From assembly GCA_964247135.1 (NCBI GenBank), contig CAXTTL010000020.1, forward strand, positions 1 to 34,595: a DNA stretch of 34,595 bases, in the 5' to 3' direction. The position numbers were made by a program, and so were the translations under genes. The notes under the pieces are model-generated. The model did no database searches. It worked only from the letters and a program-made list of their open reading frames with translations, and was not told the origin of the DNA. Source of the DNA: an uncultured Deinococcales bacterium. Its GTDB lineage: Bacteria > Deinococcota > Deinococci > Deinococcales > JAAFIG01. Numbering within the stretch: the first letter of the stretch is position 1; each line of letters opens with the position of its first letter. Of the stretch, positions 1-34,595 are shown piece after piece.

Positions 1-775
1 GTGGCTACTGCGCACTTTTGCCGGCCGCTCCCGGCTGCAAGAACAATGCCGCAAGCTCGGGCGGCGGTGGGCCAAATGCGATACCCGTGCTGATGGTGGT
101 GACGTTCGGAATCACGACGCTGCCGAAACTCGAGTTGATCTCGTGAATGTTGAGGGTGTGAAAGGTCATGAAGAGCAAGAACATGCCCAGCATCAAAAAC
201 GCATCGCCAATACGGTTGACGATGAAGGCTTTACGCGCCGCGTCCGAATTATTGCGGTCGGTGTACCAAAAACCAATCAGCAGGTACGAGGCGACACCGA
301 CGCCCTCCCAACCGATAAACAAAACAGGATACGAATCGGCAAGCACCAAAATCAGCATCATGCCAATAAAAAAATTGAGGTACGCGAAAAACCTCGAGAA
401 TCCCTTGTCAGCGTGCATGTAACCAATGGCAAAGACATGAATCAAAAATCCAATGCCCGTGATAATCAGGGTCATGATGCTCGAGAGGTGATCGAGCGCG
501 AAACCGAATTGCAAGGGCTTGCTGACGAGTTGCCCTTTCTCGAGCACCCAGATTGGCAAGAAATCCCAACGCAAGGTGTCAAGCAAAGGTTCTTTCATTG
601 GTGAAACTTGCACAAAACCAATGACCGCCAGCACGAACGACAAGAACACCAAGCTCGAGGCAATAATCCCTGGCATGGATTCTTTCATGTTCTTGCCCCA
701 GACGATCAGCACAAACCAGCCCAGCAATGGCAGCACGGGCATGAAAGCGAAAAGATTATGATTTAAGAAGTCCAC
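1..775 (-). CDS. nuoL: NADH-quinone oxidoreductase subunit L (5' part; runs to window edge)
   Basis: Hydrophobic ND5-like protein with GYMHADKGFSRFFAYLNFF, GWEGVG, AFIVNRIGD and GKSAQ motifs; follows nuoK. The TAG at 5-7 is probably a sequence error (see findings). Confidence 0.95.
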
Positions 776-777
776 AA

Positions 778-1080
778 TTATCCTTTAAGGCTCGAGAGCA
801 CATCCACGTTGGTGGTTGGACGCTTCTTGAAGATCGCCACGATGATTCCCAAACCAATCGCAACCTCAGCGGCGGCAAGGGTCAAAATAATAAACACGGC
901 ACTTTGCGCGACCAGATCACCCCAAGCTCGAGAGAACGCGACCAGCGCGAGGTTCGCGGCGTTCAGCATCAACTCGACACACAAGAACATCTGAATCGCA
1001 GAGCGGCGCGTGAGAAAACCAACCGCGCCAATTGAAAATAAAATCGCGGCGAGCGCAATGTAATACTGCGTTTCGACCAT
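778..1080 (-). CDS. nuoK: NADH-quinone oxidoreductase subunit K
   Basis: ELMLNAANL and AAAEVAIGL motifs. Start moved to ATG at 1080 (MVETQ), just after the nuoJ stop, giving 100 aa. Confidence 0.95.
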   Translation of the reverse strand: MVETQYYIALAAILFSIGAVGFLTRRSAIQMFLCVELMLNAANLALVAFSRAWGDLVAQSAVFIILTLAAAEVAIGLGIIVAIFKKRPTTNVDVLSSLKG

Positions 1081-1081
1081 G

Positions 1082-1672
1082 TTAAGCCACCACCTTTGCA
1101 GGATTGACACTCGAGATTTCGTCGGCATAAGCATTGTCGGTGGCGTGTTCGGTTGGTGTCTCGAGTTCTTCATTGTGCGCGGGTTGACGATGCACCAATG
1201 ACACCGCCCCGATTGCCGCAATCAAGAGCAGAATACTAACGACTTCAAACGGCAGCAAGAACTTGGTGAACAAAACCTCACCAATTGCGCCAGGTGTGCC
1301 ACCCTGAAGGGCTGCGGTTGCCGTCTCGAGGTTCTTCGGGGCTTTAAATTGAAACGCCGTGAACGCGAGTGCGCCTGCCAACACCAGACCGCCCGCAATC
1401 GCCACGGGTTGAACCCAAGGCAATGGGTCAGCGTCCGACATTTGCGATTCGTTGAGAAGCATAATCACAAACAAGAACAACACCATGATCGCACCCGCGT
1501 AGACCATCACCTGCACCGACGCGAGAAACTGCGCGTGCAAAGTCACGTACATCATCGCCAGCGTCAACAGCGTACCGACCAACGACAACGCCGAGTAAAT
1601 GCCGCTCTTGAACGTGATCGTGCCAATCGCGCCAGCAATCGCCAGCACTGCCAAAATCACAAAAATCACCAT
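1082..1672 (-). CDS. nuoJ: NADH-quinone oxidoreductase subunit J
   Basis: QVMVYAGAIMVLFLFVIMLL and LLPFEVVSILLL motifs; operon position. Confidence 0.95.
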   Translation of the reverse strand: MVIFVILAVLAIAGAIGTITFKSGIYSALSLVGTLLTLAMMYVTLHAQFLASVQVMVYAGAIMVLFLFVIMLLNESQMSDADPLPWVQPVAIAGGLVLAGALAFTAFQFKAPKNLETATAALQGGTPGAIGEVLFTKFLLPFEVVSILLLIAAIGAVSLVHRQPAHNEELETPTEHATDNAYADEISSVNPAKVVA

Positions 1673-2289
1673 CAGCGTTTCACCTCATTTAAAGGCTCGA
1701 GGTTTGGCTTCACGCCCACACCAGACCCAGGAATGGTGGATACGCTGCTCGAGCGATTCTTGTTCGCATTGATGGCTTCCTCGACCTCACGGCGCGGTGT
1801 GACCACAAAACCGCGTTTGACAGGCTTGGTTTTCTTGGCGGCTTCGCGGCGTTGCGGTTTGCTGCCCTCGACCCCCACGATCATGTCCTCTTTGCCGTAC
1901 ACCATGTCCCTGGTCTTGTAATCCGCCATTTCAAACTCGTTGCCCAAAATGACCGCACCCGTCGGGCAAGCCTCTTCGCACATGCCGCAAAAAATGCAGC
2001 GCAACATGTTGATCTCGTAGACGCTCGCGTGACGTTCACCCGCGCTGACCGTGTTGGTGGGCGTGTTTTCCGCCGCCTCAACGTAAATCGCGTAAGCGGG
2101 ACACGCCGCCGCACAAAGCGAACAACCAATGCACTTCTCGAGTCCGTTCGCATGACGCGTGAGGATGTGCCGACCACGGTAACGCGGTTGCAATCGGGCT
2201 GGCGTTTCGGGGTAGGACACCGTGACAGGCTTGGTGAAAAGCTTGCCCAGTGTGACCCCCATTCCTTTGGCTATCTCGAGAACACCCAT
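1672..2289 (-). CDS. nuoI: NADH-quinone oxidoreductase subunit I
   Basis: Two CxxCxxCxxxCP ferredoxin motifs ([24 protein letters not shown]); RYRGRH. Confidence 0.97.
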
Positions 2290-2385
2290 TATGAAGAACC
2301 TCCAGTGGTTAGAACGTTGCGAAAAAAATAATTAAACATCTCATTTATCCTTCTACATTTGCCGATAATTGCTTTCTGTCACATC

Positions 2386-2781
2386 TTAAGCAGCATTCGA
2401 TTTTGTAATTGACAACACGCGATTACGCGTCGAAAAACACACGTCAAAATTCTTCAAAAAGTCATCGTGTCCTAAAATAACTCGAGCACGATCATGAACA
2501 AGCCAACAAAATTCCATCTCAAGTGGATCAAATTCACGAATCTTCAACAGTAATTTTACTTTTTTTGAAGCTCCAGCAACACTACCGCCAATTTCTGGAC
2601 CATCCAATGCTGAGTCCCAATCCAAACCAAGTTGTAAACCAATCGAATGAGGTAAAACATTCACTGAAGCGCCAGAATCAACCAATGCCAAAAGTTCGTG
2701 TTTTAGCCCTAAACGCACCCAAACCATCGGCATATACGAATCGTCACTCATTTGACGGTAGGGGGCAACAAAGGTTTTCAC
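2386..2781 (-). CDS. Retropepsin-like (clan AA) aspartyl protease
   Basis: LVDSGAS catalytic motif and ILGxDFL-like C-terminal motif (VILGHDDFL); GTG start overlaps the upstream stop (GTGA). Confidence 0.8.
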   Translation of the reverse strand: MKTFVAPYRQMSDDSYMPMVWVRLGLKHELLALVDSGASVNVLPHSIGLQLGLDWDSALDGPEIGGSVAGASKKVKLLLKIREFDPLEMEFCWLVHDRARVILGHDDFLKNFDVCFSTRNRVLSITKSNAA

Positions 2782-2972
2782 GGACGCAAAGCTTCCTCTT
2801 CTTCTGGCGTTAACATCACTGGTTCTGGCAAATCTTCACGCAAATCCATATAAATCACGCGATTTGGTTGCAGATGCCGAATGGCTTCTTGCTCGAGAAG
2901 CGCTTCTTTCAAAAGCAAAAACTCGTTATCAGGAAGTTGTTGAACCGTTTCAATCAATTGCGCGACACTCAT
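2778..2972 (-). CDS. Small hypothetical protein, antitoxin/addiction-module-like N-terminus
   Basis: GGAGG RBS; 64 aa acidic helical protein (QLIETVQQLPDNEFLLLKEALL); coupled to the protease gene. Function is inferred. Confidence 0.65.
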   Translation of the reverse strand: MSVAQLIETVQQLPDNEFLLLKEALLEQEAIRHLQPNRVIYMDLREDLPEPVMLTPEEEEALRP

Positions 2973-2990
2973 AACGCACCTCCAAACCCT

Positions 2991-2996
2991 ATTCTA
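2991..2996 (-). promoter_or_regulatory. Putative internal -10 box (TAGAAT) for the 64 aa/protease pair
   Basis: TAGAAT immediately after the nuoH stop and upstream of a GGAGG RBS. Confidence 0.4.
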
Positions 2997-2997
2997 C

Positions 2998-4119
2998 TCA
3001 ATCCCCAGCCACCGCTCGAGTTTTCACATCGACCTTCTGCCAATCTCGAGAACCCGAAAACACCACCATTGCAATCACGACAACCACGCTAAAAAGACCC
3101 AAGTACCAGAGACTCGAGTTTGGAAGAAAAGCTTTGTACGCGGCGGTTGCCAGTGTGTTCACGAGCGCAACAGGGAACAAGAATTTCCAACCGAATTGCT
3201 GCAACTTGTCGTACCTCATGCGGGGCAGCGTGGCGCGAACCCAGATAAAAATAAATAACCACAAGGCAATTTTGGCGAACAACCAGATAAACGGAATGTT
3301 CGCAATGGTTTCACCCAAGAACGCAGGTCCTTTGAAACCACCCATGAACAAGGTGCTAATGACCGCGCTGGCGGTAATCATGTTCACGTACTCCGCCATT
3401 TGAAACAACGCCCATTTGATGCTCGAGTATTCGGTCAAGTACCCTGCGACCAATTCTTGTTCGGCTTCGGGAAGATCAAACGGTGTGCGGTTGGTTTCGG
3501 CGAAGCTCGAGATGACAAAAGTCACGAATGCCACGCCTTGAAACAAAATCAGGATGCCGTGATCGGCTTGCCAGTTGACAATGCCGACAAGGTTCATTGT
3601 GCCTGTCAGCATCAAAAGCCCAAGCACGCTAAGTCCCTGCCCAAGTTCGTAAGAAATGATTTGAGCGCTCGAGCGTAAACCACCAAAAAGCGGGTATTTG
3701 CTGCCCGAAGACCAACCCGCCAGGAAAATCCCGTAAACGCCCATGCTGGTGGTTGCCAGAATGAACAGCAAACCAATGTCGAGGTTAAAAACCCAAGGGT
3801 CTTGCCCGAAAAATGATCCTTTTGGTCCGGCTGGAATTGCGCCGAATGCCGAAAGTGCCATTGTTATGGCGATAAACGGCGCAAGCCAGAAGATGATTTT
3901 ATCGGCGGCGGTGACGACCAAATCTTCTTTGAAAATGGATTTGATGGCGTCGGCAATGGGTTGTGCCAAACCGAGTGGACCCACTCGGTTTGGACCAGAA
4001 CGAATCTGGAATCGTGCCAACAAACGACGTTCGATTAAGGTCATGTAAGCGAACGTGGTCAGTAAACCCAGCACAACCAGGACGGCTTTTAATAAGGTAT
4101 AAAGTATCTCAGGAAGCAT
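2998..4119 (-). CDS. nuoH: NADH-quinone oxidoreductase subunit H
   Basis: [39 protein letters not shown] and [10 protein letters not shown] motifs. Confidence 0.97.
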
Positions 4120-4142
4120 TTATTTTTCTCCTTTATGACCAT

Positions 4143-4763
4143 TCATAATTTGGATTGCATCAATGCAGAATACATTTGTTGCGTCACTTTGTAACGTTCT
4201 TCGCCGGTTCTTCGGTTCACAATAATGGTAAATGAGGCAACGCGATCAAGTTGTGCTTCTCGAGCGAATGACGTGTGCTCAAAATCAAAACGTACACCTG
4301 GCAGTACACTTTCGACAATCGGAGCTTTGATAACTGCAAGACTCATACCTGCTTCATCCTCGAGATTGATCGAAAGACTGGCAGTTTTGATATCAATATC
4401 ACTTCCATTGACCACTACAAAAACATGGGCTTCATCGCGTGATTTTGTATAAACAGAAGTGTTAAAAAATGATTCCCGATTTCCATTTGCAACAAGTCCT
4501 CCAAAAATACCGCAAAAAATAGCAGCTTGTCCTGGCGCAGATTGAAATCGAATTGAGTGCCCATTTGAGGAAAGTGGAATTCCTCCAACCGTTGTACCCA
4601 AATCGGATTGTGCAAACAAATCCATCTTGGTATTACAAGCACTTTTTATTGTCGCATTTGATGGCGCAAAAATAGCTCTAGCCCAACTTTCACCCGTACC
4701 AGCACCAGGGGCACAAGCAGCTAACGATAAAAGCAGAACACCCATTCCAATGAAGTTCTTCAT
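4143..4763 (-). CDS. Hypothetical lipoprotein (paralog of 4763-5467)
   Basis: Signal peptide with LAAC lipobox; ATG overlaps the upstream stop (TGATG). Confidence 0.75.
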   Translation of the reverse strand: MKNFIGMGVLLLSLAACAPGAGTGESWARAIFAPSNATIKSACNTKMDLFAQSDLGTTVGGIPLSSNGHSIRFQSAPGQAAIFCGIFGGLVANGNRESFFNTSVYTKSRDEAHVFVVVNGSDIDIKTASLSINLEDEAGMSLAVIKAPIVESVLPGVRFDFEHTSFAREAQLDRVASFTIIVNRRTGEERYKVTQQMYSALMQSKL

Positions 4764-5467
4764 CACTGCTCACTCCCAACAGCCGAATTCAGAACCGCAC
4801 CCTCTCGAGTTATCAAACCATGCTCGAGTTGAACCAGATTTTTTTGAGGGTTCTTGCTGGTGAGGGTTAAATCCGAAGTGTCTCGAGGGTTGGTTGTTAA
4901 AGCTGGGTATAAATCTTGGGTGACCTTATATTTTTCTTCAACACCTTTGCGGGTCAAAACAATGGTGAAGGACATGGTTTTATCGAGGTTGACTTTGTCA
5001 GCATCACTCACGGTATCAAACTGAAACCAAACTTTGTTGGCTTCGGATTCGACATCTGAGGCTTGCATTTGCGCGAACTCGAGTCCTTTTTCATCCTCGA
5101 GCGAAAGCAGCAGTTTGACATCGGCTGGCACAAGTCCTTCGTTCGTCACCAAAATTTGCGTTGAAAAAATTGGGAATGTATCTGGTCGTCGTTGCACCAG
5201 AAGTCCTATCGAATTGCAAAAAAAGTAGGTTTTGCCAAGGCTTGACCACAAACTTAATTCGCCAGTTGGTGGTTGAAAATGAACATCCACTTTTTCGTTG
5301 AGACCCCGCTGTGAAATGCCGTAATACGCGCCGCTCGTGCAAGCTTTTTCGTGGGCGGCTTTGTCGGGGGCAAACATGACACGCGCCCAAGATTGAGCGC
5401 CAGGTAGCGTTGACGCACAACTCGAGAAGAGTGTTGCCAGGGCAAGGATTGGAACCAGTTTTTTCAT
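4763..5467 (-). CDS. Hypothetical lipoprotein (paralog of 4143-4763)
   Basis: MKKLVPILALATLFSSC lipoprotein signal; ATG overlaps the nuoG stop (TGATG). Confidence 0.75.
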   Translation of the reverse strand: MKKLVPILALATLFSSCASTLPGAQSWARVMFAPDKAAHEKACTSGAYYGISQRGLNEKVDVHFQPPTGELSLWSSLGKTYFFCNSIGLLVQRRPDTFPIFSTQILVTNEGLVPADVKLLLSLEDEKGLEFAQMQASDVESEANKVWFQFDTVSDADKVNLDKTMSFTIVLTRKGVEEKYKVTQDLYPALTTNPRDTSDLTLTSKNPQKNLVQLEHGLITREGAVLNSAVGSEQ

Positions 5468-7842: not shown

Positions 7843-7857
7843 AAACACTCCAATTTA

Positions 7858-8451
7858 TTATAGTGTGAGTAGAAATTTAACTAGGCTATCAAATGATGGG
7901 CATCGTGTTCTACATTTATCAAGATCAAGAATTTTTGCGTATATTTCATTATCATTTGTATCATATAAAGGTTTTTTACCCTTATCTCGAGAGAGCTTAA
8001 TCAGTTTTTCTTTGGGTTTTATAATTAATTCAGGGGTTAAATGAGCTTTTCCCTTTCCTTTGCTAATCTTATGGATAATATTATCATCCGACCAAAACCA
8101 TGCTTCCATTTCTTCAATTGGGATACATATAAAATTACTACAATTAGATGGAAATTTTATTTTAGCCAGTTCTAATTTTAGTTGATTAATATCTCTTAAA
8201 GCATTTGTTATCTTTAGTCTATCCAAATCATGAACTACAATAATATTACTATACCCTTTATCAAATAGTTCTCTCGCCCAAGCTGTTGCTTTAGTAACTA
8301 TTTTTCCACATCCACCATCTTGTCTTCCTTTTATTACTGCGCGATATTTTTTATTAGATTTTTCAATAAATACTCTTTGAATGATTTCCCTGAAAGCATT
8401 AATATCAGTTTCATCTTCAGCTATAATACCTATTTTTACATCTTTTTTCAT
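7858..8451 (-). CDS. DUF4276/RloB-like TOPRIM-fold protein
   Basis: IAEDETD, VVHDLD, IEEMEAWF and C-terminal CPSF motifs; AT-rich; ATGA-coupled to the ATPase. Confidence 0.7.
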   Translation of the reverse strand: MKKDVKIGIIAEDETDINAFREIIQRVFIEKSNKKYRAVIKGRQDGGCGKIVTKATAWARELFDKGYSNIIVVHDLDRLKITNALRDINQLKLELAKIKFPSNCSNFICIPIEEMEAWFWSDDNIIHKISKGKGKAHLTPELIIKPKEKLIKLSRDKGKKPLYDTNDNEIYAKILDLDKCRTRCPSFDSLVKFLLTL

Positions 8452-9575
8452 AATAAATGTCCATTATAGATAAAATCGCTAAGTGAAAGATTATCATCTA
8501 AGTATTTTTGTAAATTTATAATATGTTTTTTACCAAGTTTTACAGAATTTATTTTGTTATTTTCATTTTCAATAAATCTAATTGACTTGATTTCTGACCA
8601 ATCTACTACTTGTTTAGAATGAGTAGAAAGAATAATTTGACGTTGAAAAGAATAAGAATAAATGGTTGAAAGTATTTTTGATAACATTCCTGGGTGAATT
8701 GCAGTTTCAGGCTCTTCAATAAGCAATAAACCAGACTCATTTCGGATTAAATATATAATTATTTCAATTATTCGCAGTGTTCCATCTGAAATACTTCCTA
8801 TATTAACGCCATCAATAATTATAAAAATTAGATCATCGTTTTTTAGACCTTCTGTAGCTTCTTTGATTTGAATTTTATTATTATTTCTTGAAATAATCTG
8901 AAATTCGAGATTTGAAATTACTTTATTTTTCTTTAATAAATCTTTCAATTCCTTGAATTTAATTGAATTATTAATAGACCAGTCAATTAAAGTTTTTTTG
9001 ACATAGTGAAATCTATCATTTTTATCTTCAAGAAACTCTAAGCCTGTTATTACTTCATCTTTTCTTTGTTCATTTCTTGGTATTCCCGCTTTAACCAAAT
9101 GAAAATTAAGAAAAAAATCTCTAATCTCAACTATAACTTTAGAAAGTTTGGCTATACTAGATGTGTCAATACTCAATAAGCTCTTATTCGATGGAATTCT
9201 TAGTATTTCCAAGCCATAAGATGTCACTACCCCATCATTAATACTCCAAATCTCACTACCATCTGCAAAGAAACAAGATTCAGTTAAATTAAAATCATTA
9301 TTGCGTGAAAAAACTTCATCTTTTAGAGTAATTTCATATTTATAGATAATTTCTTTATGTTTCTTTAGTTTAATTTTACATTCAAATTGAATAGGTGAAT
9401 TCAATATATTGAATTCACCAAAAATAGTCTTTGCCCCTGAAAATATAGATTCAAGTATCACTGATTTTCCAGCGCTATTTTTACCAACTAAAACAATAAT
9501 TGAATTATTTAAATCTATATTGATTTCTTCTTGAGAAAATTTGAATCGATATCGGAATTTTACATTTTTAAGCAT
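8448..9575 (-). CDS. AAA_21/ABC-type ATPase
   Basis: Walker A GKNSAGKS, signature ISDGTLR, Walker B/D-loop LLLIEEPETAIHP, H-loop STHS; GAGGA RBS; AT-rich. Confidence 0.88.
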   Translation of the reverse strand: MLKNVKFRYRFKFSQEEINIDLNNSIIVLVGKNSAGKSVILESIFSGAKTIFGEFNILNSPIQFECKIKLKKHKEIIYKYEITLKDEVFSRNNDFNLTESCFFADGSEIWSINDGVVTSYGLEILRIPSNKSLLSIDTSSIAKLSKVIVEIRDFFLNFHLVKAGIPRNEQRKDEVITGLEFLEDKNDRFHYVKKTLIDWSINNSIKFKELKDLLKKNKVISNLEFQIISRNNNKIQIKEATEGLKNDDLIFIIIDGVNIGSISDGTLRIIEIIIYLIRNESGLLLIEEPETAIHPGMLSKILSTIYSYSFQRQIILSTHSKQVVDWSEIKSIRFIENENNKINSVKLGKKHIINLQKYLDDNLSLSDFIYNGHLL

Positions 9576-9738
9576 ATTGTCCTCGGAGCTGGATTTCAGA
9601 GAATTATATCTAATTTTTCAATATTCTTTATTTATATATATATTTCAGACAACGTTAACTCCATAAACCGACACTCGAGATACACCCTACTCGCCAATCT
9701 CGAGGGTTTCGGGAAGGGTGGTTGGTTGCTCGAGATGT

Positions 9739-13742: not shown

Positions 13743-14189
13743 CTAAATTTGTAAACTCGAGAGAGCATTTTTATGATCGTGTATTTTCATGTTTTGATCT
13801 CCTCGAGCCAGCAAGTAAATACTGCGAATAGTAAAAATACTGATTAAAAAGGTGATTGTAAAGTACAAAATATAAGGTGTTTCAAAGTTTCCAAGTTGGG
13901 TATCTAAAAGCAAACCTGCTACGAAATACAAGTTTTCAGTCAAAATACCTAAAAGCATAAATATATAAATTGTTTTGTAGCGAATTTGATGTTGATTCCA
14001 GATTGAGGACATCAGTGCATATGCGCCAAAAATGCCTAGAACAACCATAGAACTCATAAATACACTAAATTGTTTATTGAGCGCAGATACAGAAAAATCC
14101 CAGATCAGCCAAAGGGAATAAACCAGTGCTGGTAAAACGCCAAAAATTATCTCGAGCCAACGCACTGGAGTGAAGGAATTGGTTGGCAT
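13743..14189 (-). CDS. Hypothetical 4-TM membrane protein
   Basis: Four hydrophobic stretches; AT-rich; start uncertain (GTG 14213 or ATG 14189). Confidence 0.65.
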   Translation of the reverse strand: MPTNSFTPVRWLEIIFGVLPALVYSLWLIWDFSVSALNKQFSVFMSSMVVLGIFGAYALMSSIWNQHQIRYKTIYIFMLLGILTENLYFVAGLLLDTQLGNFETPYILYFTITFLISIFTIRSIYLLARGDQNMKIHDHKNALSSLQI

Positions 14190-14203
14190 TGCTCGAGATA
14201 TGT

Positions 14204-14767
14204 TCACCACCACCTAATCTGAGCATCTGGAAACTCGAGTGGTGCAACTTTCTGCCCTTGGCTGTACTTGTGAATCAGGGTGTACTCGTTTCCAACAGGT
14301 TGTTGATACACTTCGAGGCTGTAAAGTTCATTGGTGGCGTTGATAATCCAGACCTCTTGAATGCCGCTTTGGGCGTATTTTGGTAATTTCACGTGTCGGT
14401 CATGGTCAAGCGTAGATTTGCTGACTTCGATAAAGAGCAAGGCGTCTTCTAGAGTACCTTTGCGTTTATGATAGTAATCTTCGCGGTACTCGAGGATGAT
14501 AAAATCGGGTTCGGGTTCGGTGGTGTCGCTGAGTTCAACGGGAACTTGACTGATGGGAACAGCTTTTTCGTAAAGCTTGACACTGAATTCGGTGGTCAGT
14601 CTGGCAAGAATTCCGTAATGTTCGGGTCCCATCGGCGGCATAATGTAGACCTTTCCGTCAATCAATTCAGTCCGAACTTCTTCTGGAAATACGCCAGCTT
14701 GAATCATTTTGTGATAGTCATTCACGCTGTACAGCGCGACTTGCGGCTCTTCTACGATTTGAGTCAT
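14204..14767 (-). CDS. Uma2 family (DUF820) PD-(D/E)XK endonuclease
   Basis: RTELIDG, PMGPEH, EPEPDF, IEVSKSTLDHDRHVKLPKYAQSGIQEVWIIN. Confidence 0.93.
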   Translation of the reverse strand: MTQIVEEPQVALYSVNDYHKMIQAGVFPEEVRTELIDGKVYIMPPMGPEHYGILARLTTEFSVKLYEKAVPISQVPVELSDTTEPEPDFIILEYREDYYHKRKGTLEDALLFIEVSKSTLDHDRHVKLPKYAQSGIQEVWIINATNELYSLEVYQQPVGNEYTLIHKYSQGQKVAPLEFPDAQIRWW

Positions 14768-17622: not shown

Positions 17623-17656
17623 GGTTTCCTTCCATGCTCGAGGGTCAAACTCGAGC

Positions 17657-17683
17657 TAGTGCGAACTTTCACGAGAGAGTTTA
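17657..17683 (-). promoter_or_regulatory. Putative nuo promoter -10 (TAAACT, 17678-17683) with adjacent Rex-like operator (17657-17674)
   Basis: Minus strand TCGTGAA-AGTT-CGCACTA matches 10/14 positions of TTGTGAA-N4-TTCACAA and lies over the expected transcription start. Confidence 0.5.
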
Positions 17684-17777
17684 CAACAAAAGGCTGCATA
17701 CCAACAAATTTAACACTTTCGAGTGGGGGTTTTACAGTCCCTCGAGCTACAAAAAGACCACTCCCGACGGTCATGCC

Positions 17778-18216: not shown

Positions 18217-18885
18217 CTAGCCTTCAATGCTCGAGCGCAACGGTTCGATGCCTGGGATTAATCCTTCACGCCAAACCTCTAAGAGCGCATCGACCACGCG
18301 CGGATCAAAATGGCGTCCGCGCTCCGCAATCAAAGCGTTGGCAATCTCGAGTGACGTTTTACGTTTGCTGTACACCCGTCCTTGGGTCATGACATCAAAA
18401 GCGTCAGCCAGCGCCACAATGCGTGCGGAAAGGGCAATATCTTGATCGCGCAAACCATCGGGATAACCCTTGCCATCCCAGCGCTCATGGTGCGAACGGG
18501 CGACCTGTGCGTAACGCTCCAAACCTGGCACGGAGAGCAAAAACTCTTGTCCAAGTTCGGTGTGGTTGCGCACCGTTGCCATTTCGTGATGCTCGAGTTT
18601 CTTGGGTTTGGACAAAATTGCCAGGTTGACCGCAATCTTTCCGATGTCGTGCAGCAATCCCGCCAACCGCAAACGCTCGAGTTCTTCTTGCAGCAAACCC
18701 AAAGCCCGTCCGATCACCAGCGCGTATTTGGCAACCCGTTCGGAGTGCTGATAAGTTTCGAGGTCTTTCTGGTGCAGGTTGCGGAGCACAAAACCTGCCA
18801 CGGCAGAATCCATGACAGAATCGGACAACTCCGTACCGTTGACATTCCAGATTGCGTTGGTGTTATCGGCGCTCAAGGTTTGCAT
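18217..18885 (-). CDS. Stand-alone HD-GYP domain protein (cyclic dinucleotide phosphodiesterase family)
   Basis: HSERVA, LLHDIGK, HHERWDGKGYPDGL and ADAFD motifs. Confidence 0.92.
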   Translation of the reverse strand: MQTLSADNTNAIWNVNGTELSDSVMDSAVAGFVLRNLHQKDLETYQHSERVAKYALVIGRALGLLQEELERLRLAGLLHDIGKIAVNLAILSKPKKLEHHEMATVRNHTELGQEFLLSVPGLERYAQVARSHHERWDGKGYPDGLRDQDIALSARIVALADAFDVMTQGRVYSKRKTSLEIANALIAERGRHFDPRVVDALLEVWREGLIPGIEPLRSSIEG

Positions 18886-19031
18886 TCTAACTGTATTTTT
18901 ACCTCAAAAAGTCTCACGCAATTCTTACAGTTATAAAAATGAAGGAAGGTTAAGAAAAGTCAGAAGATTGAAATCCAGCGTACAAACTTCAGAAAATCCT
19001 CGATCAAGCCAAATCGGGTACGATGCTGCCC

Positions 19032-20201
19032 GTGCCAAGCCTGACCCTCAAAGCCAACCGCGAACGCCGCCTCGAGAATTTCCACCCTTGGGTCTTTAAA
19101 GACGATGTGCAAAGTGTGGACGGCAATTTTGAGCCAGGCGAGGTGCTCGAGATCAAAGCCGCCAACGGCGCATTCATTGCGTTGGGTTACGTCAACGCCC
19201 GCAGTTCGATTCCGGCAAGGATTCTGAGTTTTAAACGCGAAGCCATCAACCTCGAGTTTTACCGCCAAAAAATTCGGATTGCCATCGCCAAACGCGGCAA
19301 ACTGACGAACACCAACGCGCTGCGGATTGTCAACGCCGAATCGGACGGGCTGCCTGGCGTGATTGCCGATTTGTTCGGCGATGTTTTAAGCATTCAGTTG
19401 CGCAACGCAGGCAGCGAGCGCCACAAGGATTTGATTTTTGAAGCCTTCAAACTCGAGACCAAAGTCAGCAGCGCCTTCGAGCGCTCAGACACCAGTGAAC
19501 GTCAAAAAGAGGGACTCGAGAATCGGACGGGCATTCTGTGGGGCGAGGTTCCAGAAACGGTCAGCTTTCTCGAGGATGGGATCAACTTTGGTTTTTCACC
19601 CGTAGGCGGACAGAAAACTGGTTTTTACCTCGACCAGCGCGACAACCGCCGTTTGATGGCGAGCCTGGTGGATGCCTCGAGCAAACTGCTTGACGTTTAC
19701 TCTTACACTGGCGGTTTTAGCCTTCATGCCGCCGCCAAAGGCGCAACCGCCTTCGCCGTGGACAAAGACCCAATCGCCCTCCAAGCCCTCGAGAAGGTCG
19801 CTCGAGCCAATAATTTTGACAAGAAAATCAGCTCGAGGCTTGGTGATGCGCTCGAGGTGCTCGATCAATTGTTGAAAGAAAACCGCAGATTCACCCACGC
19901 GATCATTGACCCGCCAACGCTCGCCAAACGCAAAGACGAGGTGGTCGCCGCCAAAAGAATTTTCACGATTGCCACCAAAAACGTGCTCAGGATGCTCGAG
20001 CCGAACGGCATTGTAATGGTTTCGACCTGCGCGTATCACATTAAAGTGGACGATCTGATCGAAGCCTGCCGTTTTGCCGCCGGCGATGCCAAACGCAGGC
20101 TCGAGGTGCTGGACGTGACTTATCAACCGCTCGATCACCCGTGGATGCTGCAAGTGCCTGAAAGTTTGTACTTAAAAACGCTGGTTTTACGGGCGGAATG
20201 A
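19032..20201 (+). CDS. RlmI-family SAM-dependent rRNA methyltransferase (PUA + MTase)
   Basis: HPWVF, ESDGLPG, GQKTGFYLDQRDNR, YSYTGGF, DPP and YLK motifs. GTG 19032 lies 7 nt after TACGAT; the ORF track start is 19023. Confidence 0.9.
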   Translation: MPSLTLKANRERRLENFHPWVFKDDVQSVDGNFEPGEVLEIKAANGAFIALGYVNARSSIPARILSFKREAINLEFYRQKIRIAIAKRGKLTNTNALRIVNAESDGLPGVIADLFGDVLSIQLRNAGSERHKDLIFEAFKLETKVSSAFERSDTSERQKEGLENRTGILWGEVPETVSFLEDGINFGFSPVGGQKTGFYLDQRDNRRLMASLVDASSKLLDVYSYTGGFSLHAAAKGATAFAVDKDPIALQALEKVARANNFDKKISSRLGDALEVLDQLLKENRRFTHAIIDPPTLAKRKDEVVAAKRIFTIATKNVLRMLEPNGIVMVSTCAYHIKVDDLIEACRFAAGDAKRRLEVLDVTYQPLDHPWMLQVPESLYLKTLVLRAE

Positions 20202-21696: not shown

Positions 21697-22695
21697 TTAG
21701 GAAACCAAAGTGCTGAGCACTCGAGCATCATCAAACTCGAGTTCGACCAATCCAGCGCGTTTTTCAAAATGCAGTTCGCCGGCATGATCGCCGATGTAAC
21801 TGCCCGTGGTCGGCGGCACGTCGGAGTAATCGCGCCCAACGGCGACCACCGTGTACCCCAAATTGGGACGGCGGGCATTGGTCGGGTCAAAGCCGATTGC
21901 CTCGAGCTTGCCGTTTTGGTTTGGAATCATCACCTCGAGCCAGGCGTGAGAGCCGCCCTCACCGAGCATGTGACCGCTGACGTAACGGGCTGGCAGTCCC
22001 GCAGCCCGCAGCAATGCCAGAGCGATATGCGCGTAATCCTGGCACAGACCAACCCCAAGCTCGAGCGCCTGACTGGCGGTGGTCGCCACGCCGGTCACAC
22101 CAGCTTTGTAGGTCATGGCAGCCGACACCCAATCGCAAATTCGCTCACCAAGCTCGAGCGGGGTTTTGGCACGCAACCTTAAAGCGCTGGCAACCTCGAG
22201 CATTTTGGGATTCGCCCGCGTGAAAATCGTGGCTTGGGTTAACACTCGAGCTTCAGTGTCGGTTACGGTTGGCGCGGGCAGGTCGGCGCAACGTTCGACG
22301 CAAAAGATCACCTCAAAGGTCGTCCAATGGTTGATGTGCGCCACCTCGAGTTCGATCACCACATTGCCGAAAGCATCCGTGACCAGGCGTTTCTCGAGCG
22401 GGATGGGTTCGATGCCAAGTTTGAAATCCAAGAGTTTTTGATTGCCATACATTTGCCTGGGTTTGACAATCAGGCGCTGCGAAAGGTCGGTCACCAAACT
22501 CGGGTAGACGTAAGCAAACTGTTGAAACGAAAACACCTGCGCTCGAGTCACCGAAGCCCAATCGATGCCCCTGTACTCGAGAAATTGAACTTGATTGGCA
22601 ATCTGGCGCTCGAAGCTGCCGCTGGGTCCCAGCACCACATCGAGCGGTTCGGAATGCACATTGGCAACTCGAGCCTCCAAGGTTGGCACGCTCAC
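21697..22695 (-). CDS. Transglutaminase-like protein
   Basis: GLCQDYAH, ARYVSG, SHAWLE, FDPTN and GRDYSDVPP motifs. Confidence 0.92.
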   Translation of the reverse strand: MSVPTLEARVANVHSEPLDVVLGPSGSFERQIANQVQFLEYRGIDWASVTRAQVFSFQQFAYVYPSLVTDLSQRLIVKPRQMYGNQKLLDFKLGIEPIPLEKRLVTDAFGNVVIELEVAHINHWTTFEVIFCVERCADLPAPTVTDTEARVLTQATIFTRANPKMLEVASALRLRAKTPLELGERICDWVSAAMTYKAGVTGVATTASQALELGVGLCQDYAHIALALLRAAGLPARYVSGHMLGEGGSHAWLEVMIPNQNGKLEAIGFDPTNARRPNLGYTVVAVGRDYSDVPPTTGSYIGDHAGELHFEKRAGLVELEFDDARVLSTLVS

Positions 22696-24724: not shown

Positions 24725-24776
24725 GGGTTATTGTACGCGACAAATTTGGAATCTCGAGGGGCGAATGGTGACGCCA

Positions 24777-24815
24777 CCCTCATCCCCAACCCTTCTCCCG
24801 CCAGCGGGAGAAGGG
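24777..24815. repeat. REP-like hairpin element CCCTCATCCCCAA-CCCTTCTCCCGC-CA-GCGGGAGAAGGG
   Basis: Perfect 12-bp inverted repeat (24790-24801 / 24804-24815) with a C-rich leader, intergenic between two minus-strand genes. Confidence 0.7.
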
Positions 24816-24844
24816 AGTTCAATTGATTCCTCGAGAAATCGAAT

Positions 24845-26811
<1,967 letters not shown>

Positions 26812-28563: not shown

Positions 28564-28596
28564 GCGATGCCATCCAAAATGTCGTAAACTCGAGCC

Positions 28597-29568: not shown

Positions 29569-29611
29569 AATGTTCACGAGATGCCTCAAAGTTTTTATTT
29601 GACTCGCTCTT

Positions 29612-30001
29612 TTATTTTTGAATGCTGTGCCCTGCATTCTCGAGGGTCACAATGGCGCGTTCGAGGTACTCGAGTTTGACCAGCACGTAATCGGTGTCAA
29701 ACGTGGAAATGGCGAAAATCCCAATCTCTGCATCACGCAATGGATTCAGGACACTCGAGAGAATACCAGTTAAATCAAACGCGAATGGTCCAAGCAGTTT
29801 CAGGCAAGCCCAACCGCTTTCTTGCCTCACATCTTCCGTATCTGTGATGACGCTTTCGCAGACAATCGAAAGCTCGTCATTGGTGCGGGTGATGCTCGAG
29901 AAACCTGTTGCGGTCAACGCCCAATCTGGAATGCTGGAGTTTGGCGCAAGTCGGTGAATGGCGTAATCGCCTGTTAACACCTTGAGTGTCAAGGTTTTCA
30001 T
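29612..30001 (-). CDS. ACT domain protein (ACT_7/CASTOR-like)
   Basis: [24 protein letters not shown] and [16 protein letters not shown]-coupled to the prenyltransferase. Confidence 0.88.
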
Positions 30002-30870
30002 TGTATCCACACATCGATAATCACGCCAGCCAACATGGTCAGAGCAAGCCAGGAATTGGCATTAAAAAAGGCTTCGTTGACCCTTGCCAGATCGCCTGGT
30101 TTGACAAGCCGATGCTCGTAAAACAGAATCCCGCCCATGATCGCCACGGCGATGTAATACGGGTAGGTGGCATTCACGGCGAATCCCACAGCAATCAGCA
30201 GCAGCCACATGATGGCGTGACAGATTTTGGCAATCTCGAGCGAGGCTGGAATGCCGAAGCGTTGCGGGATGCTAAAAACATGGTTTTGTTGGTCGAAATC
30301 AAAGTCTTGGGTGGCGTAAATCACGTCCAGACCGATCATCCAAAAAATCACGACCAACCACAGCAACCAGGCGGCGGGGGAAAAACTGTTTGTGACCGCA
30401 ATCCAACCACCAACCGCAGCCGCGCCGTCGGTAATGCCAAGCCAAAGGTGACACAGCCAGGTGAAACGTTTGGTGTACGGGTACAAGACCAAAAAAACCA
30501 CGGCAATCGGCAACAGCGTTAACGGCAACGAACCCAAACGTGCCGCTGCAAAAGTCAGAATGACCAAGGATACAATTGCCAACAACACACCCTCGAGCGG
30601 CTTGACGACCCCTCTGGGAACGTGACGCATGGCAGTCCTGGGGTTTCTGGCATCAATCGCGGCATCGATCACACGGTTGAGTGCCATCGCGCTGGTGCGG
30701 GCGCTCGCCATTGCCACGGTAATCAGCAAAAACTTCTCCCAACCAGGGAAACCATTGGCGGCAAACAACATGCCCGCGTAAGCGAAAGGCAGCGCAAAAA
30801 TGGTGTGCTCAAACTTCACGAACTCGAGGTAGGTTTTGAGTTTCCCAAGCGGTGTGGTCACGGTGCTCAC
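29998..30870 (-). CDS. mqnP: UbiA-family prenyltransferase, MqnP-like (futalosine menaquinone pathway)
   Basis: [34 protein letters not shown] and DVIYATQD motifs. Confidence 0.82.
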
Positions 30871-30984
30871 GTCAAAAGATTACACCCAATCCAGGCGGAC
30901 AAAAGGCACTCGAGGTGATACGCTGGCGCAAAACTTGAAACTTCTGTTAGAGTTTGTAAAGTAAAACCCTAGGAGGCTACCTTC

Positions 30985-31200
30985 GTGCCAAACATTGAAT
31001 TGACCGCCGTTTTTTACCTCAACATTCCCGACGATATCGACGCCGATGACGTGACGCTCGAGGTTGGTGAAGATGGTTTGATCACGTTTTTTGCCGACGG
31101 TGAAGAAATTGCCGATCACACCGCACTGGAAGGCTTTGAAACCGAAAGCGTTTTTGTTGACGATGACGCCGCCGATGCCAATGACGAGGACGAAGATTAG
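30985..31200 (+). CDS. Small highly acidic hypothetical protein
   Basis: Perfect AGGAGG RBS with GTG start; 71 aa with 25 D/E and no K/R. Confidence 0.75.
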   Translation: MPNIELTAVFYLNIPDDIDADDVTLEVGEDGLITFFADGEEIADHTALEGFETESVFVDDDAADANDEDED

Positions 31201-31245
31201 GTCATCATGGACATTTCACGCTCGAGCATTGGTTAAACTATCCCC

Positions 31246-32409
31246 ATGCTCGAGCGAGTCCTTTTTACAAGTGACGTGGTTTACAACGGGGTGGGTTTAC
31301 CACTCGAGAACGCTGGTGTCCTGGTCGCCAAAGATTCCAGCATCGACCCTGGAAGTGTGGTCGTGTTCGGCAAGCTCGAGGATTTAAAAACCCAGTACCC
31401 CGACGCTCGGGTGCAGCACCTGGGTCGCGCAATTCTGCCGGCACCAGTCAACGCCCACACGCATTTGGATTTAAGCCTCGTGCCGTTCAAAGCCGCACCG
31501 TACACGCCTTGGATTGGTTACGTGATCTCGCAGCGCGAACTGCGTGGGCTGGCGGCAGCCGAACACGGTCTGGAGCTTCTTCGCACGGCAAACACCAGCA
31601 TCTTCGGTGACATTGTCGCCCGAGCCGAGGTGATGCCGTTTTTGCTGGCGCAGGAAGGCTTTTCTGGCGTGGCGTACTGGGAAGTTCTGGGCGCAAACCC
31701 CGACCAAGCCGAAGAGATTTTTAATGACACTGTTGAAAAAATCCGTGAATGGCGCAAACTCGAGCGTCCAAACGGCGTGCGCGTCGGTTTATCGCCGCAC
31801 ACCGCGCATACCGTCTCGAGCGTGTTGATGAAAAAATTGGTGGCGTTCGCCAAACTCGAGGGCATTCCGTTGCAAATTCACATTGCCGAAAGCCCAAGTG
31901 AACTCGAGATGTTCCAAACCGGCACGGGCGCGTTAGCCCAAAGCATTACCCGCGCGTTCAACCTGCCACTCGAGCGCATTTTTGGACGCGAACCAGGTTT
32001 TGACCTGACCTGCGTCAGTCAGCTCGAGCAACTGGGTGTTCTGGATGCCAAACCCACCCTGATTCACGGCGTTAACGTCGTTGAAACGGACGTGCAAGCC
32101 ATTGCCCGGGCAGGCTGTACAGTCGTGACCTGTCCACGCAGCAACAAAAACCTCGAGTGTGGAAATCTGCCCTGGCAGTTGTACGCCAAGTACGGCGTCG
32201 AAGTTGCCCTTGGCACGGATTCTGTCGCGTCGGGCGAGAGTTTAAATATTTATGACGAAGCGCTGGCGGCACTCGAAATTCACGGCTCGGGTTTGGGATG
32301 GCGCAACATTGTGCGTTACGCCTCGCGGGGCGGGTACAAAGCTTTGGGCATGAAAACCCCGACGGTGCATCGCGGGGATAGCTTCTCGAGTTTGAATGTT
32401 TGGAAGTGA
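31246..32409 (+). CDS. Amidohydrolase, probably aminodeoxyfutalosine deaminase
   Basis: NAHTHLD, SPHT, QIHIAES, CPRSN and LGTDS motifs; recalled resemblance to D. radiodurans Dr0824; next to an mqnP-like gene. Confidence 0.8.
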   Translation: MLERVLFTSDVVYNGVGLPLENAGVLVAKDSSIDPGSVVVFGKLEDLKTQYPDARVQHLGRAILPAPVNAHTHLDLSLVPFKAAPYTPWIGYVISQRELRGLAAAEHGLELLRTANTSIFGDIVARAEVMPFLLAQEGFSGVAYWEVLGANPDQAEEIFNDTVEKIREWRKLERPNGVRVGLSPHTAHTVSSVLMKKLVAFAKLEGIPLQIHIAESPSELEMFQTGTGALAQSITRAFNLPLERIFGREPGFDLTCVSQLEQLGVLDAKPTLIHGVNVVETDVQAIARAGCTVVTCPRSNKNLECGNLPWQLYAKYGVEVALGTDSVASGESLNIYDEALAALEIHGSGLGWRNIVRYASRGGYKALGMKTPTVHRGDSFSSLNVWK

Positions 32410-32428
32410 TGCTCGAGATTTGGGATTG

Positions 32429-32662
32429 TTAATTTGCTACAACAGCCACAGATTCGAGCAAATCTTGCAAATCACGACCGCTCAATGGTTGGTTTTGGGC
32501 AGTATCCAAACGGCTACGAAAATCAACACGTTCAGCTTCAGGAAAATCAATCTCGAGTTTGCCGCGCACATGACCTTGAACACTTTCAATCAGCAACTGA
32601 GCCAATTCAAGCCGATCATGAGGCTTGAGCTGCAGTACGGCTTTGGTCAACGTGGTGTTCAT
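32429..32662 (-). CDS. Orphan addiction-module antitoxin-like protein
   Basis: AVLQLKPHDRLELAQLLIESV pattern; extended -10 TGCTAAAAT 7 nt before ATG 32662. Confidence 0.6.
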   Translation of the reverse strand: MNTTLTKAVLQLKPHDRLELAQLLIESVQGHVRGKLEIDFPEAERVDFRSRLDTAQNQPLSGRDLQDLLESVAVVAN

Positions 32663-32775
32663 GCTCGAGATTTTAGCACAATGAACAGAAAGGTAAAATT
32701 TATTCCCACCCAAAAAGTATCTCGAGTGTCATTTTGACCCTGAACTTTTTCACCCAAAAGCCGTAACATCAAGCA

Positions 32776-33588
32776 ATGCCACAAGTTTCACCAGCCCTCA
32801 AAACCTCAACATCTCGAGCCTTGCAGATCACGCTGGCGTTTTTGTTGTTCTCGAGCGCGAATGCCCAGACCACCACGGCTGGCAGCAACGTCAGTATTTT
32901 GGCGGCTTTTCTGGCGGGTTTAATCTCGTTTCTCAGCCCTTGCGTCTTGCCGCTCGTACCAAGTTACCTGGCGGTTTTGGGTGGCGCAACGGGCAAAAAA
33001 CCAGTGCAAGGTGCGTTGCTGTTCATTCTGGGTTTTAGCCTGGTGTTTATTTCGCTCGGTGCTGGCGCTAGCGCTTTGGGGTCAATCTTGCGCGAGAACA
33101 AAAATTTGCTTGGACAAATCGGCGGTGCGCTCATTCTGGTCTTCGGCGTTGTGCTCTTGATCAAAGACCGCGTGCCATTTCTGGCTCGAGAGTACCGCAC
33201 CGACCTCGGCACAGCCTCACAGTTCGGTCTGGTCGCGTTGGGTGCAGCCTTCGCCGCCGGTTGGACGCCTTGTCTTGGTCCAATCCTCGGACTCATCCTG
33301 ACCGTTGCCGCCTCGAGCGCCGAAGTTGGGCGCGGCGTGGGCTTGCTGACCATGTACTCGCTCGGGCTTGCCGTGCCGTTCCTGCTGGCGGCATTGGCAT
33401 GGCGTCAAGTCTCGAGCGTCATGCGTAAAGTTGGGCGTTACGTCAACATTGTCGAAAAAATTTCTGGTGTGCTGTTGATCGTTGCAGGCATTTTGCTGGT
33501 CACAGGCACATACTCGAGCCTCGGGAATTACTTGCAGGGTTTAACGCCCGAATGGATGAAAAGTTTTGAGAACGGTTTGAAGAATTAA
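32776..33588 (+). CDS. ccdA: Cytochrome c biogenesis protein CcdA
   Basis: SFLSPCVLPLVP, GWTPCLGPIL and YSLGLAVPF motifs. Confidence 0.92.
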   Translation: MPQVSPALKTSTSRALQITLAFLLFSSANAQTTTAGSNVSILAAFLAGLISFLSPCVLPLVPSYLAVLGGATGKKPVQGALLFILGFSLVFISLGAGASALGSILRENKNLLGQIGGALILVFGVVLLIKDRVPFLAREYRTDLGTASQFGLVALGAAFAAGWTPCLGPILGLILTVAASSAEVGRGVGLLTMYSLGLAVPFLLAALAWRQVSSVMRKVGRYVNIVEKISGVLLIVAGILLVTGTYSSLGNYLQGLTPEWMKSFENGLKN

Positions 33589-33626
33589 GAAATGCTCGAG
33601 CGCCAGAATTCGTTAGAATCAGCATC

Positions 33627-34595
33627 ATGAATTTCCCAACCCAAGCTCGAGTCGTGATTATCGGCGGCGGTATTGTTGGCGCGAGTGTCGCCTATCACTT
33701 GACCAAATTGGGTTGGTCTGACGTGCTGCTGCTCGAGCAAAACGCGCTCGGTGGCGGCACGACCTGGCACGCGGCAGGACTGGTCGGGCAACTTCGCACC
33801 AGCAACAGCATGACCAAAATCAACAAATACAGCGTGGAATTGTACGCTAAGCTCGAGGCAGAAACGGGCGTGAATGCTGGTTGGAAAACGGTTGGCAGTT
33901 TGATCGTCGCCACCAGCGCAGACCGCATGATTCAACTGAAACGCACGATGGCGATGGCGGAATTGTTTGGCGTCAAAGCCGAGATGATTTCCGCAGAATC
34001 TGCGCTCGAGAAATTCCCGCTCATGCGTGTTGATGACGTGCTTGGCGCGGCATGGTTGCCCGACGATGGCAAAACGCTTCCCAAAGAAACCGCCCTCGCG
34101 CTGGCAAAAGGCGCGGAGTTGGGCGGCGCAAGAATTCTCGAGCATGTGCAAGTGCTGGATGTGCTGCGCGAGAACGAGCGCGTGTCTGGCGTTCGGACAC
34201 TCGAGGGGGATATTGCTGCGGAATTTGTGGTCTTGTGTGGCGGCATGTGGACTCGAGAATTGGGTTTGAAAATTGGCGTCAACATTCCGCTCTTTCCTGT
34301 CGAGCATCATTACGTGGTGTCCGAACCGCTCGAGGGGGCATACGATGAACTTCCCGTTGGGCGCGACCCGAACCGCTGCATTTATTACCGTGGCGAGGGC
34401 AATAAGATCATGCTGGGCGCGTTTCAAGCCTACACCAAACCTTGGGATGCCAAACCGATACCGGCAGACTTCTCAAACGCGTTGCTCGAGCCTGATTGGG
34501 ACAAATACGCTGACCCTCTGGCGGCTGGGAAGTGGCGCATTCCAAAACTCGAGACTGCCAAGTTTGAAAAGTTCGTCAACGGTCCCGAGTCATTC
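33627..34595 (+). CDS. FAD-dependent oxidoreductase, GcvT/dimethylglycine dehydrogenase family (runs off window)
   Basis: Missing from the ORF track because there is no stop in the window. Manual translation: MNFPTQARVVIIGGGIVGASVAYHLTKLGWSDVLLLEQ...GTTWHAAGLVG...VNGPES. Confidence 0.9.
   Translation, partial: MNFPTQARVVIIGGGIVGASVAYHLTKLGWSDVLLLEQNALGGGTTWHAAGLVGQLRTSNSMTKINKYSVELYAKLEAETGVNAGWKTVGSLIVATSADRMIQLKRTMAMAELFGVKAEMISAESALEKFPLMRVDDVLGAAWLPDDGKTLPKETALALAKGAELGGARILEHVQVLDVLRENERVSGVRTLEGDIAAEFVVLCGGMWTRELGLKIGVNIPLFPVEHHYVVSEPLEGAYDELPVGRDPNRCIYYRGEGNKIMLGAFQAYTKPWDAKPIPADFSNALLEPDWDKYADPLAAGKWRIPKLETAKFEKFVNGPESF

Follow-up and report, generated by a model that had tools for sequence, protein, structure and literature searches.

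Why should a single six-base palindrome, CTCGAG, recur every 150 or so bases along a contig of an uncultured Deinococcales bacterium? The contig (CAXTTL010000020.1 of assembly GCA_964247135.1) was analysed over its whole length of 34,595 nucleotides, called the window below. The initial annotation had put the number of copies at about 255; an exact search gives 256 (7.4 per kb), the first at position 129, and 100 dinucleotide-preserving shuffles of the window gave a mean of 5.65 (standard deviation 2.27, largest 12). The excess might have been confined to this contig, and it is instead genome-wide: the assembly (G000; 5.09 Mb in 386 contigs, 52.7% G+C) holds 33,925 copies, 6.66 per kb or about one per 150 bases. 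CTCGAG is its commonest hexamer, at 24.75 times the composition expectation; the runner-up among the 64 hexamer palindromes, TTTAAA, reaches 3.7-fold, and 62% of all TCGA tetramers sit within CTCGAG. Palindromes are otherwise generally purged from the assembly, 36 of the 64 having an observed/expected ratio (O/E) below 0.2. We conclude that CTCGAG is a real, strong and family-wide word that is maintained at the DNA level. The sites of the window, and three places that illustrate them, are as follows.

129..34553, no strand: the CTCGAG site set, 256 exact matches
9674..9704, no strand: two intergenic sites 25 bases apart (9674 and 9699), downstream of a foreign island
17637..17746, no strand: three intergenic sites (17637, 17650 and 17741) between the nuo operon and the next gene
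19023..20201, plus strand: an RlmI-like methyltransferase gene (PUA_3 and Methyltrans_SAM domains) with 13 sites

The word within and between genes

Genes were called by a crude procedure combining open reading frames (ORFs) with a codon score rather than taken from curated annotation, which gave 4,552 genes in the assembly; window genes were called likewise. Strictly non-coding DNA was defined as that overlapping neither a called gene nor an ORF of at least 100 codons (399 kb, 47% G+C). This non-coding DNA holds 3,018 CTCGAG against 85 expected, an excess of about 35-fold, at 7.56 per kb; coding DNA holds 27,942 and is thus the sparser, at 6.55 per kb. The eleven sites that the initial annotation had named as non-coding (9674, 9699, 11692, 17637, 17650, 17741, 21361, 24753, 30909, 31221 and 32721) all fall outside the gene calls. 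It had also claimed that all three frames are used, and this holds: window genes carry 150 sites as CTC GAG, 29 as xCT CGA Gxx and 49 as xxC TCG AGx, the corresponding figures for the assembly being 17,525 (63%), 4,116 and 6,301.

Ten synonymous shuffles that kept each protein and the codon counts of each gene left 3,957 of the 27,942 coding sites (14%), and five permutations of whole codons left 1,630. For the window, 228 coding sites compare with a mean of 32.5 and a maximum of 47 in 200 synonymous shuffles. The enrichment therefore persists under the codon-preserving shuffle that had been proposed as a test that could refute it. Both minor frames are driven as hard as the major one: CGA makes up 83% of arginine codons where it completes CTCGAG and 11-13% elsewhere, and TCG makes up 88% of serine codons where it completes the word and 15-23% elsewhere. 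In the proteome, no dipeptide exceeds expectation by as large a factor as Leu-Glu (22,750 occurrences, 9,677 expected), which is coded CTC GAG in 77% of cases against 11% predicted from codon frequencies (in 10 of 10 cases in the RlmI-like gene, as previously noted). The reverse dipeptide, Glu-Leu, is as frequent as expected (9,809), and GAG CTC never encodes it, GAGCTC having no copy in the assembly. The proteome owes some 13,000 of its Leu-Glu dipeptides to CTCGAG.

An explanation by selection, whether on codons, on pairs of codons or on Leu-Glu itself, could draw on the CTC GAG frame, which holds 63% of the coding sites, but it is refuted by the 35-fold enrichment of non-coding DNA, by the driving of every frame, by the ordinary frequency of Glu-Leu and by the loss of 86% of coding sites on synonymous shuffling. 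The earlier view that the cause acts in trans on DNA, rather than through codon bias, is borne out to this extent.

Distribution and turnover among relatives

The closest NuoD loci belong to metagenome-assembled genomes (MAGs) labelled 'Deinococcales bacterium' (80-95% identity), with Deinococcus next, in agreement with the initial assignment to Deinococcota. The family genomes we used are incomplete MAGs (57-94% complete, contigs no longer than 116 kb) plus one closed genome, G011. All 18 of the other genomes sampled from this uncultured Deinococcales family, in five genera, carry 4.3-6.8 CTCGAG per kb, and other families of the order carry 0.03-2.9, these densities of relatives resting on rounded genome sizes. 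The ratio of observed to synonymously shuffled counts in loci around nuoD (2-21 kb each, crude ORFs) is 7.9 for the family, 6.8, 3.0 and 1.5 for Trueperaceae-labelled loci of low, middle and high G+C, and 1.2 for Thermaceae-labelled loci, so that Meiothermus- and Thermus-like relatives show no effect beyond codon usage; in 23 Deinococcus loci the ratio is 0.1. The trait is therefore graded across the order, and in Deinococcus CTCGAG is avoided (15 sites across the 515 kb of loci L006-L028, L033 and L064, O/E 0.09). Among the Deinococcus loci, 41 of the 64 hexamer palindromes have O/E below 0.5, and the most enriched is TGATCA (O/E 4.3).

Several palindromes are nearly missing from the assembly, with no copy of GAGCTC, one of GGGCCC, three of CGGCCG and seven of GGATCC, and the tetramer GGCC has 380 copies (O/E 0.02). 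Avoidance of GGCC is not family-wide: O/E is 0.83 in locus L005, and G011 has 1,484 copies in 400 kb.

CTCGAG sites are conserved in place. In a congener with 87% identity (G004), 105 of 127 window sites are retained (83%) against 7,445 of 16,093 other hexamers in the same frame (46%); at three loci of other genera (76-78% identity), 72 of 106 sites are retained (68%) against 22-26% of controls. Turnover was followed in about 65 kb aligned to five congeners, with pairwise identities of 86-89% and the lineages treated as a star tree. Ancestral CTCGAG had changed in 106 of 1,434 lineage-sites (7.4%), compared with 15% for other hexamers.

The 39 lineage-specific arrivals at CTCGAG are few, but they have an unusual make-up: one change was needed in 5, two in 13, three in 18 and four in 3. 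The share needing at least three changes (54%) ranks first among 401 words with at least 20 arrivals each, for which the median is 10% and the next highest value 33%. Gains called from strict ancestors, ordered by the number of changes needed, numbered 5, 2 and 4, where the baseline proportions are 85%, 12% and 2% (Fisher p = 1.2e-4), and the event list shows the multi-base pattern in all six lineages. Eight gains lie within 75 bases of a loss in the same lineage, where 1.8 are expected. Most new sites thus stem from two to four base changes close together, often next to a site that was lost. Examples from the window are given here.

22576..22581, no strand: site present only in G000; the five congeners have ATTTAA, ATTCAG or ATTTAG (at least three differences), with ordinary flanks
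19801..19806, no strand: one-step gain in G000; three congeners have CTCGGG, the other two CTAGGG and CCCGGG
18757..18762, no strand: loss in G000, TTCGAG here and CTCGAG in congeners
17179, 18277, 18987, 20714, 24713, 29934, 29981 and 32272, no strand: further losses in G000

Long recombination tracts are unsupported as the source of the multi-base gains, the flanks of which are nearly ordinary: lineage-unique changes 30-60 bases away amount to 9-10% for gains, 7-8% beside losses and 10% beside control clusters. Gains do not fill long gaps, the nearest shared site being at a median of 54 bases for gains and 57 for random positions. A single-lineage site matched a site of another genus in 2 of 6 cases against 24 of 9,074 in the background, though coverage is small (for genus g3 only about 5 kb of the 20-kb query aligned, too little for a firm result) and both cases are on the G000 branch. 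New sites may be written in one event, imported as short patches or reached by rapid stepwise change at chosen places. The first of these, in which a dedicated short-patch process (templated conversion or editing) would write each new CTCGAG whole, is suggested by the multi-base nature of 34 of the 39 arrivals, their top rank among 401 words, their ordinary flanks, the neutral rate of one-step gains and the placing of gains beside losses. We regard it as improbable; if true, the family would possess an active system for writing motifs, and bacteria are not known to have one of this kind.

What keeps the word

The preference is for the whole hexamer. In non-coding DNA, the ratio of CTCGAG to each class of one-base variant is 15-60 times that given by composition at all six positions, for transitions and transversions alike, with a lone higher value (153) for a variant containing CTAG. 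The variants themselves are not depleted (O/E 0.5-2.7); transitions are the highest among them (TTCGAG/CTCGAA 1.3-1.9, CTTGAG/CTCAAG 1.2-1.7), as the decay of an abundant word predicts. A synonymous position within the word is kept, CTC GAG outnumbering CTC GAA by 14.8 to 1 where 0.48 is expected. Across the six congeners, single steps toward CTCGAG from two and three mismatches make up 9.6% and 13.9%, against 10.0% and 16.0% for 150 random control words; there is no graded pull at either distance, and stepwise selection on partial matches is rejected. Around the core there is a weak symmetric preference, A-n-G-CTCGAG-C-n-T (A at -3, G at -1, C at +1, T at +3), shown alike by 2,435 non-coding sites and 30,544 coding ones. 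It carries at most 0.12 bit per position, and a dispersed repeat or mobile element, such as a repetitive extragenic palindrome (REP) or a miniature inverted-repeat transposable element, is rejected because the core has no conserved surroundings. In an equilibrium model such a bias corresponds to a scaled advantage of about 3-4, which would make gains about 3-fold faster and losses 6- to 13-fold slower.

These results constrain the mechanism. Our favoured reading, to which we give a probability of about 0.45 and which is thus tentative, is that CTCGAG is a whole-hexamer word of the class of highly iterated palindromes (HIPs), kept by a force acting on DNA rather than on codons and read by a symmetric protein in the exchange or repair of kin DNA. 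The bias at six positions, the undrained variants, the lack of graded pull and the symmetric flanks point to a two-fold-symmetric protein that would read CTCGAG all-or-none, with the stringency of a restriction or modification enzyme. The presence of a site would give a small advantage, some 3-4 scaled units of selection or conversion, most likely in transactions of kin DNA, namely the acceptance or recombination of incoming DNA, or recombinational repair. This function is suggested by analogy with HIP1 of cyanobacteria: methylated HIP1 raises transformation in Synechococcus PCC 7002 (Kamoku and Nielsen, 10.1101/2024.09.10.611283), and a proposal has been made that HIP1 acts in uptake as a watermark of kinship (Rodriguez-Cruz et al., 2026, PMC13756078).

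Several results count against this reading. A density of 6.7 sites per kb is far above the need of an uptake tag or repair signal. Losses outnumber gains, by 106 to 11 with strict ancestors and 92 to 47 with relaxed ones (an imbalance that may partly reflect event detection), and do so in all six congeners, which may mean that old copies are kept while the word no longer accumulates; one-step gains (5 of 48 changes) run near the neutral rate and are not clearly faster. Spacing is near-random, with a coefficient of variation of gaps between successive sites of 0.96 in the assembly and 0.89 in the closed relative, and thus gives no strong sign of a coverage requirement, which these data do not support. 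ComEC and DprA were found in all five family genomes searched, but also in the control, Deinococcus radiodurans; as Deinococcus avoids the word, the competence genes do not discriminate. HIP1 has two near-universal orphan methylases, DmtA and DmtC, but no near-universal cognate methylase was found here: no Pfam methylase family was matched throughout the family genomes examined, nor did a conserved ortholog appear. Finally, the known uptake sequences, as far as the sources consulted describe them, differ in being asymmetric, 9-12 bases long, present at about 1 per kb and accompanied by graded mismatches.

Since the MAGs are incomplete, negatives for genes mean 'not found' and not 'absent'. The initial annotation had placed the responsible gene outside the window, and the window indeed has no plausible reader gene. 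PF01555 methylases were not found in the closed G011 or in G015, nor PF00145 methylases in G008, and Eco57I and N6_Mtase matches vary in size between family genomes. Nine methylases of G000 have only generic NCBIfam names; the 5-methylcytosine methylase on C14 has orthologs of at least 70% identity in only three other family genomes. The G000 methylases look like parts of ordinary restriction systems. It is possible that several enzymes with one specificity, or a new class of methylase, stand behind CTCGAG. The methylase on C36 lies beside a PvuII-family nuclease and is only 26% identical to the methylase of an XhoI-type pair in G021. None of these enzymes stands out as a candidate.

Some of these genes are of interest in themselves. 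The PvuII-family endonuclease gene beside the N4/N6 methylase (G000:C36:19235-21059; L085 603-2427) fits the 15 copies of CAGCTG. G021, from another family of the order, has at C1:74896-76793 (L313 1198-3095) an XhoI-family endonuclease gene overlapping a convergent N4/N6 methylase gene, yet its CTCGAG density is 1.7 per kb. Five of the six genus genomes encode a protein of about 370-390 residues (G000:C320:1304-1735) that weakly matches the C-terminal portion of the SacI endonuclease family, and a stronger SacI-family match is found in G006; the SacI-like protein and the absence of GAGCTC may be connected.

Turning to other explanations, an abundant dimeric nucleoid protein might bind CTCGAG, densely and evenly enough to compact or organise the chromosome. 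Such a function has been proposed for HIP1 (Xu, Lawrence and Durand, PMC5861425). A nucleoid protein would account for one site per 150 bases more readily than a signal would, and the first 400 kb of G011 show a very even density (4.60 per kb; 10-36 sites per 5-kb window, variance/mean 0.9-1.0; longest CTCGAG-free gap 1,746 bases). Because that genome is closed, the lack of word-free islands is not merely a binning artefact. Symmetric flanks and conserved positions also fit, and the coupling of gains to nearby losses is what stabilising selection on local density predicts. However, nucleoid proteins usually bind degenerate sites, and here one mismatch abolishes the preference; gains do not fall in longer-than-usual gaps, and no candidate protein was found. 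We consider this explanation unlikely. A binding protein and a bias of recombination or uptake were the other two causes suggested in the initial annotation, and both are still viable.

The word might instead be a strand signal for repair: a methylase would mark CTCGAG, mismatch repair would use the mark, and sites would be selected and ratcheted. A six-base site needs about 25-fold enrichment to match the chance density of the four-base GATC, which stands at roughly 4 per kb in E. coli. G precedes and C follows the word somewhat more often than other bases do (34-39%), which recalls the GmC requirement of the model as set out by Elhai (2015, PMC4390886), and CTCGAG is methylated in some hot-spring lineages according to a 2026 preprint (10.64898/2026.06.24.734251), whose passages available to us make no tie to Deinococcota. 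The initial annotation had likewise suggested an orphan methylase with biased repair, and this part of it fared poorly. Neither Vsr endonuclease nor an XhoI-family nuclease was found in any of 19 family genomes (G000 included, one closed), no methylase family is common to those examined, the one-base variants are not drained, and a bias at six positions is beyond repair of single mismatches. Under a ratchet, moreover, one-step gains should be rapid at the outer positions and outer variants should be in surplus, but gains are mostly multi-base, the bias is even, and sites are conserved in place rather than turning over. The strand signal is, in our estimate, a rather poor prospect.

Slightly poorer still is the idea of a relic, a word written in a past burst in the family ancestor and now slowly decaying, partly protected by its fixation in proteins. 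It would accommodate the excess of losses, the near-neutral one-step gains and the variation of density among genera (4.3-6.8 per kb). Against it, non-coding DNA is as dense as coding DNA or denser, the variant ratios there imply a present bias of 15-60-fold, synonymous positions are kept at 14.8 to 1, accessory DNA has 70% of the core density, and five genera retain the word at 76-78% DNA identity.

Very-short-patch repair of deaminated methyl-cytosine, which would turn a near-cognate word into CTCGAG without selection, is close to refuted: it is a known cause of the CCWGG excess in E. coli, and words containing TCGA are generally common in G000, but repair at a single position merges two words at most, for a gain of about 2-fold, and cannot produce a bias of 15-60 at every position, transversions included, nor are TTCGAG and CTTGAG depleted, and Vsr was not found.

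Foreign DNA, known systems and significance

G000 DNA unmatched in the five congeners has 5.25 CTCGAG per kb and no GAGCTC, and shared DNA has 7.35 per kb; the accessory genome of the genus seems to be large and to bear the word signature of the family all the same. Long stretches of G000 unmatched at the DNA level in the congeners are C1:10001-24618, C1:68503-80000 and C3:32276-40000. In the window, one segment stands apart.

7858..9575, minus strand: two-gene insert encoding a DUF4276 protein (197 residues) and an AAA_21 ATPase (375 residues); 27% G+C, one CTCGAG site in 1.7 kb

The insert sits inside the nuo operon after nuoG and is missing there in G004, where window positions 7851-9683 correspond to only 662 bases (L001). 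The 1,688-base CTCGAG gap that it makes is among the 16 longest in G000. It looks like a recently acquired module of defence type. The nuo operon is interrupted more than once: between nuoE and nuoD, at 13743-14767 on the minus strand, lie a 156-residue ORF without Pfam match and a putative endonuclease of the Uma2 family (187 residues). A repeat of 45-75 bases near 24772-24846, probably of REP type, has dozens of copies at 83-100% identity in all six genus genomes.

A scan of viral contigs for three clustered CTCGAG returned at least 120 stretches. Among the matches listed, the densest have 58-71% G+C (most 64-70%), most are also rich in GAGCTC, a codon effect, and none has the composition of the family, so the scan is uninformative on phages of these hosts. 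Also among the matches listed, the GC-rich viral contigs L212, L113, L123, L152 and L188 have 4-7 CTCGAG per kb (O/E 12-20). L212 (9.7 kb, 64% G+C) has 57 CTCGAG and no GAGCTC; its ORFs hold 24 against 7.1 by synonymous shuffle, and 33 sites lie outside long ORFs. No HK97 capsid or TerL ATPase was matched in five family genomes (G000, G005, G007, G009 and the closed G011), in which prophages with these hallmark genes seem rare or absent.

To our knowledge, HIP1 was the only well-known clade-wide hyper-abundant palindrome before this, and for thirty years the debate on its purpose has been confined to a single phylum. In the part of Elhai (2015, PMC4390886) consulted here, HIPs are treated only in cyanobacteria, where they comprise HIP1 (GCGATCGC) and the alternates GGCGCC, GCsGC and rCCGGy; a methyl-directed repair ratchet is proposed for them, and Table 2 of that paper gives HIP1 densities of 300-2,700 per Mb. 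Conservation of HIP1 sites has been held to argue for selection (Xu, Lawrence and Durand, 2018, PMC5861425). We found no published report of CTCGAG enrichment in Deinococcota, or of a HIP-like word outside cyanobacteria, in a search that did not extend to subscription journals and supplements.

By its features CTCGAG belongs with the HIPs. For that class an excess of at least about 15-fold is taken as the mark, and CTCGAG, at 24.75-fold, is an outlier among palindromes; its presence in every frame and in non-coding DNA exceeds what codon usage would give, and it is shared by a clade, is scarce in foreign DNA and is conserved in position. The analogy with HIP1 drawn in the initial annotation is accordingly well supported: both are palindromes tens of fold over expectation throughout a clade, in genes and between them, with other palindromes purged, foreign DNA lacking the word and sites conserved in place among relatives. 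CTCGAG differs in belonging to another phylum, in having six bases and not eight, in its density (about 6,700 per Mb against 300-2,700) and in having visibly reshaped dipeptide content.

The uptake sequences, the uptake signal sequence of Pasteurellaceae and the DNA uptake sequence of Neisseriaceae, are similar in being clade-specific, present in coding and non-coding DNA, stable, able to alter peptides and marks of kin. They show graded over-representation of mismatched forms in the account of Bakkali (2007), as far as it was available to us. CTCGAG, with competence genes likewise present, is palindromic and 6-7 times as dense, and its excess vanishes with a single mismatch. Dam GATC/MutH and Dcm CCWGG/Vsr of E. 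coli resemble it as short palindromes with a frequency tied to methylation-linked repair, but those effects are about 1-2-fold at one position against 25-fold at six; neither a Vsr gene nor a depleted deamination neighbour was found, and MutH was not searched for. Restriction-modification systems of XhoI/PaeR7I type recognise the same site, and the reader we propose would be comparably stringent and two-fold symmetric, but restriction normally drives avoidance, as is seen in Deinococcus, and the nuclease was found in none of the 19 family genomes.

For practical purposes CTCGAG is a sensitive marker of kin versus foreign DNA, useful for binning metagenomic contigs of family genomes. The 13,000 or so added Leu-Glu dipeptides represent a strong shaping of proteins by a non-coding pressure. 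As an independent and denser case, the Deinococcales word makes the ideas of methylation, repair, uptake and chromosome organisation testable by comparison beyond cyanobacteria, and the avoidance in the sister genus Deinococcus, together with the intermediate Trueperaceae-labelled lineages, provides a natural gradient for finding the responsible gene.

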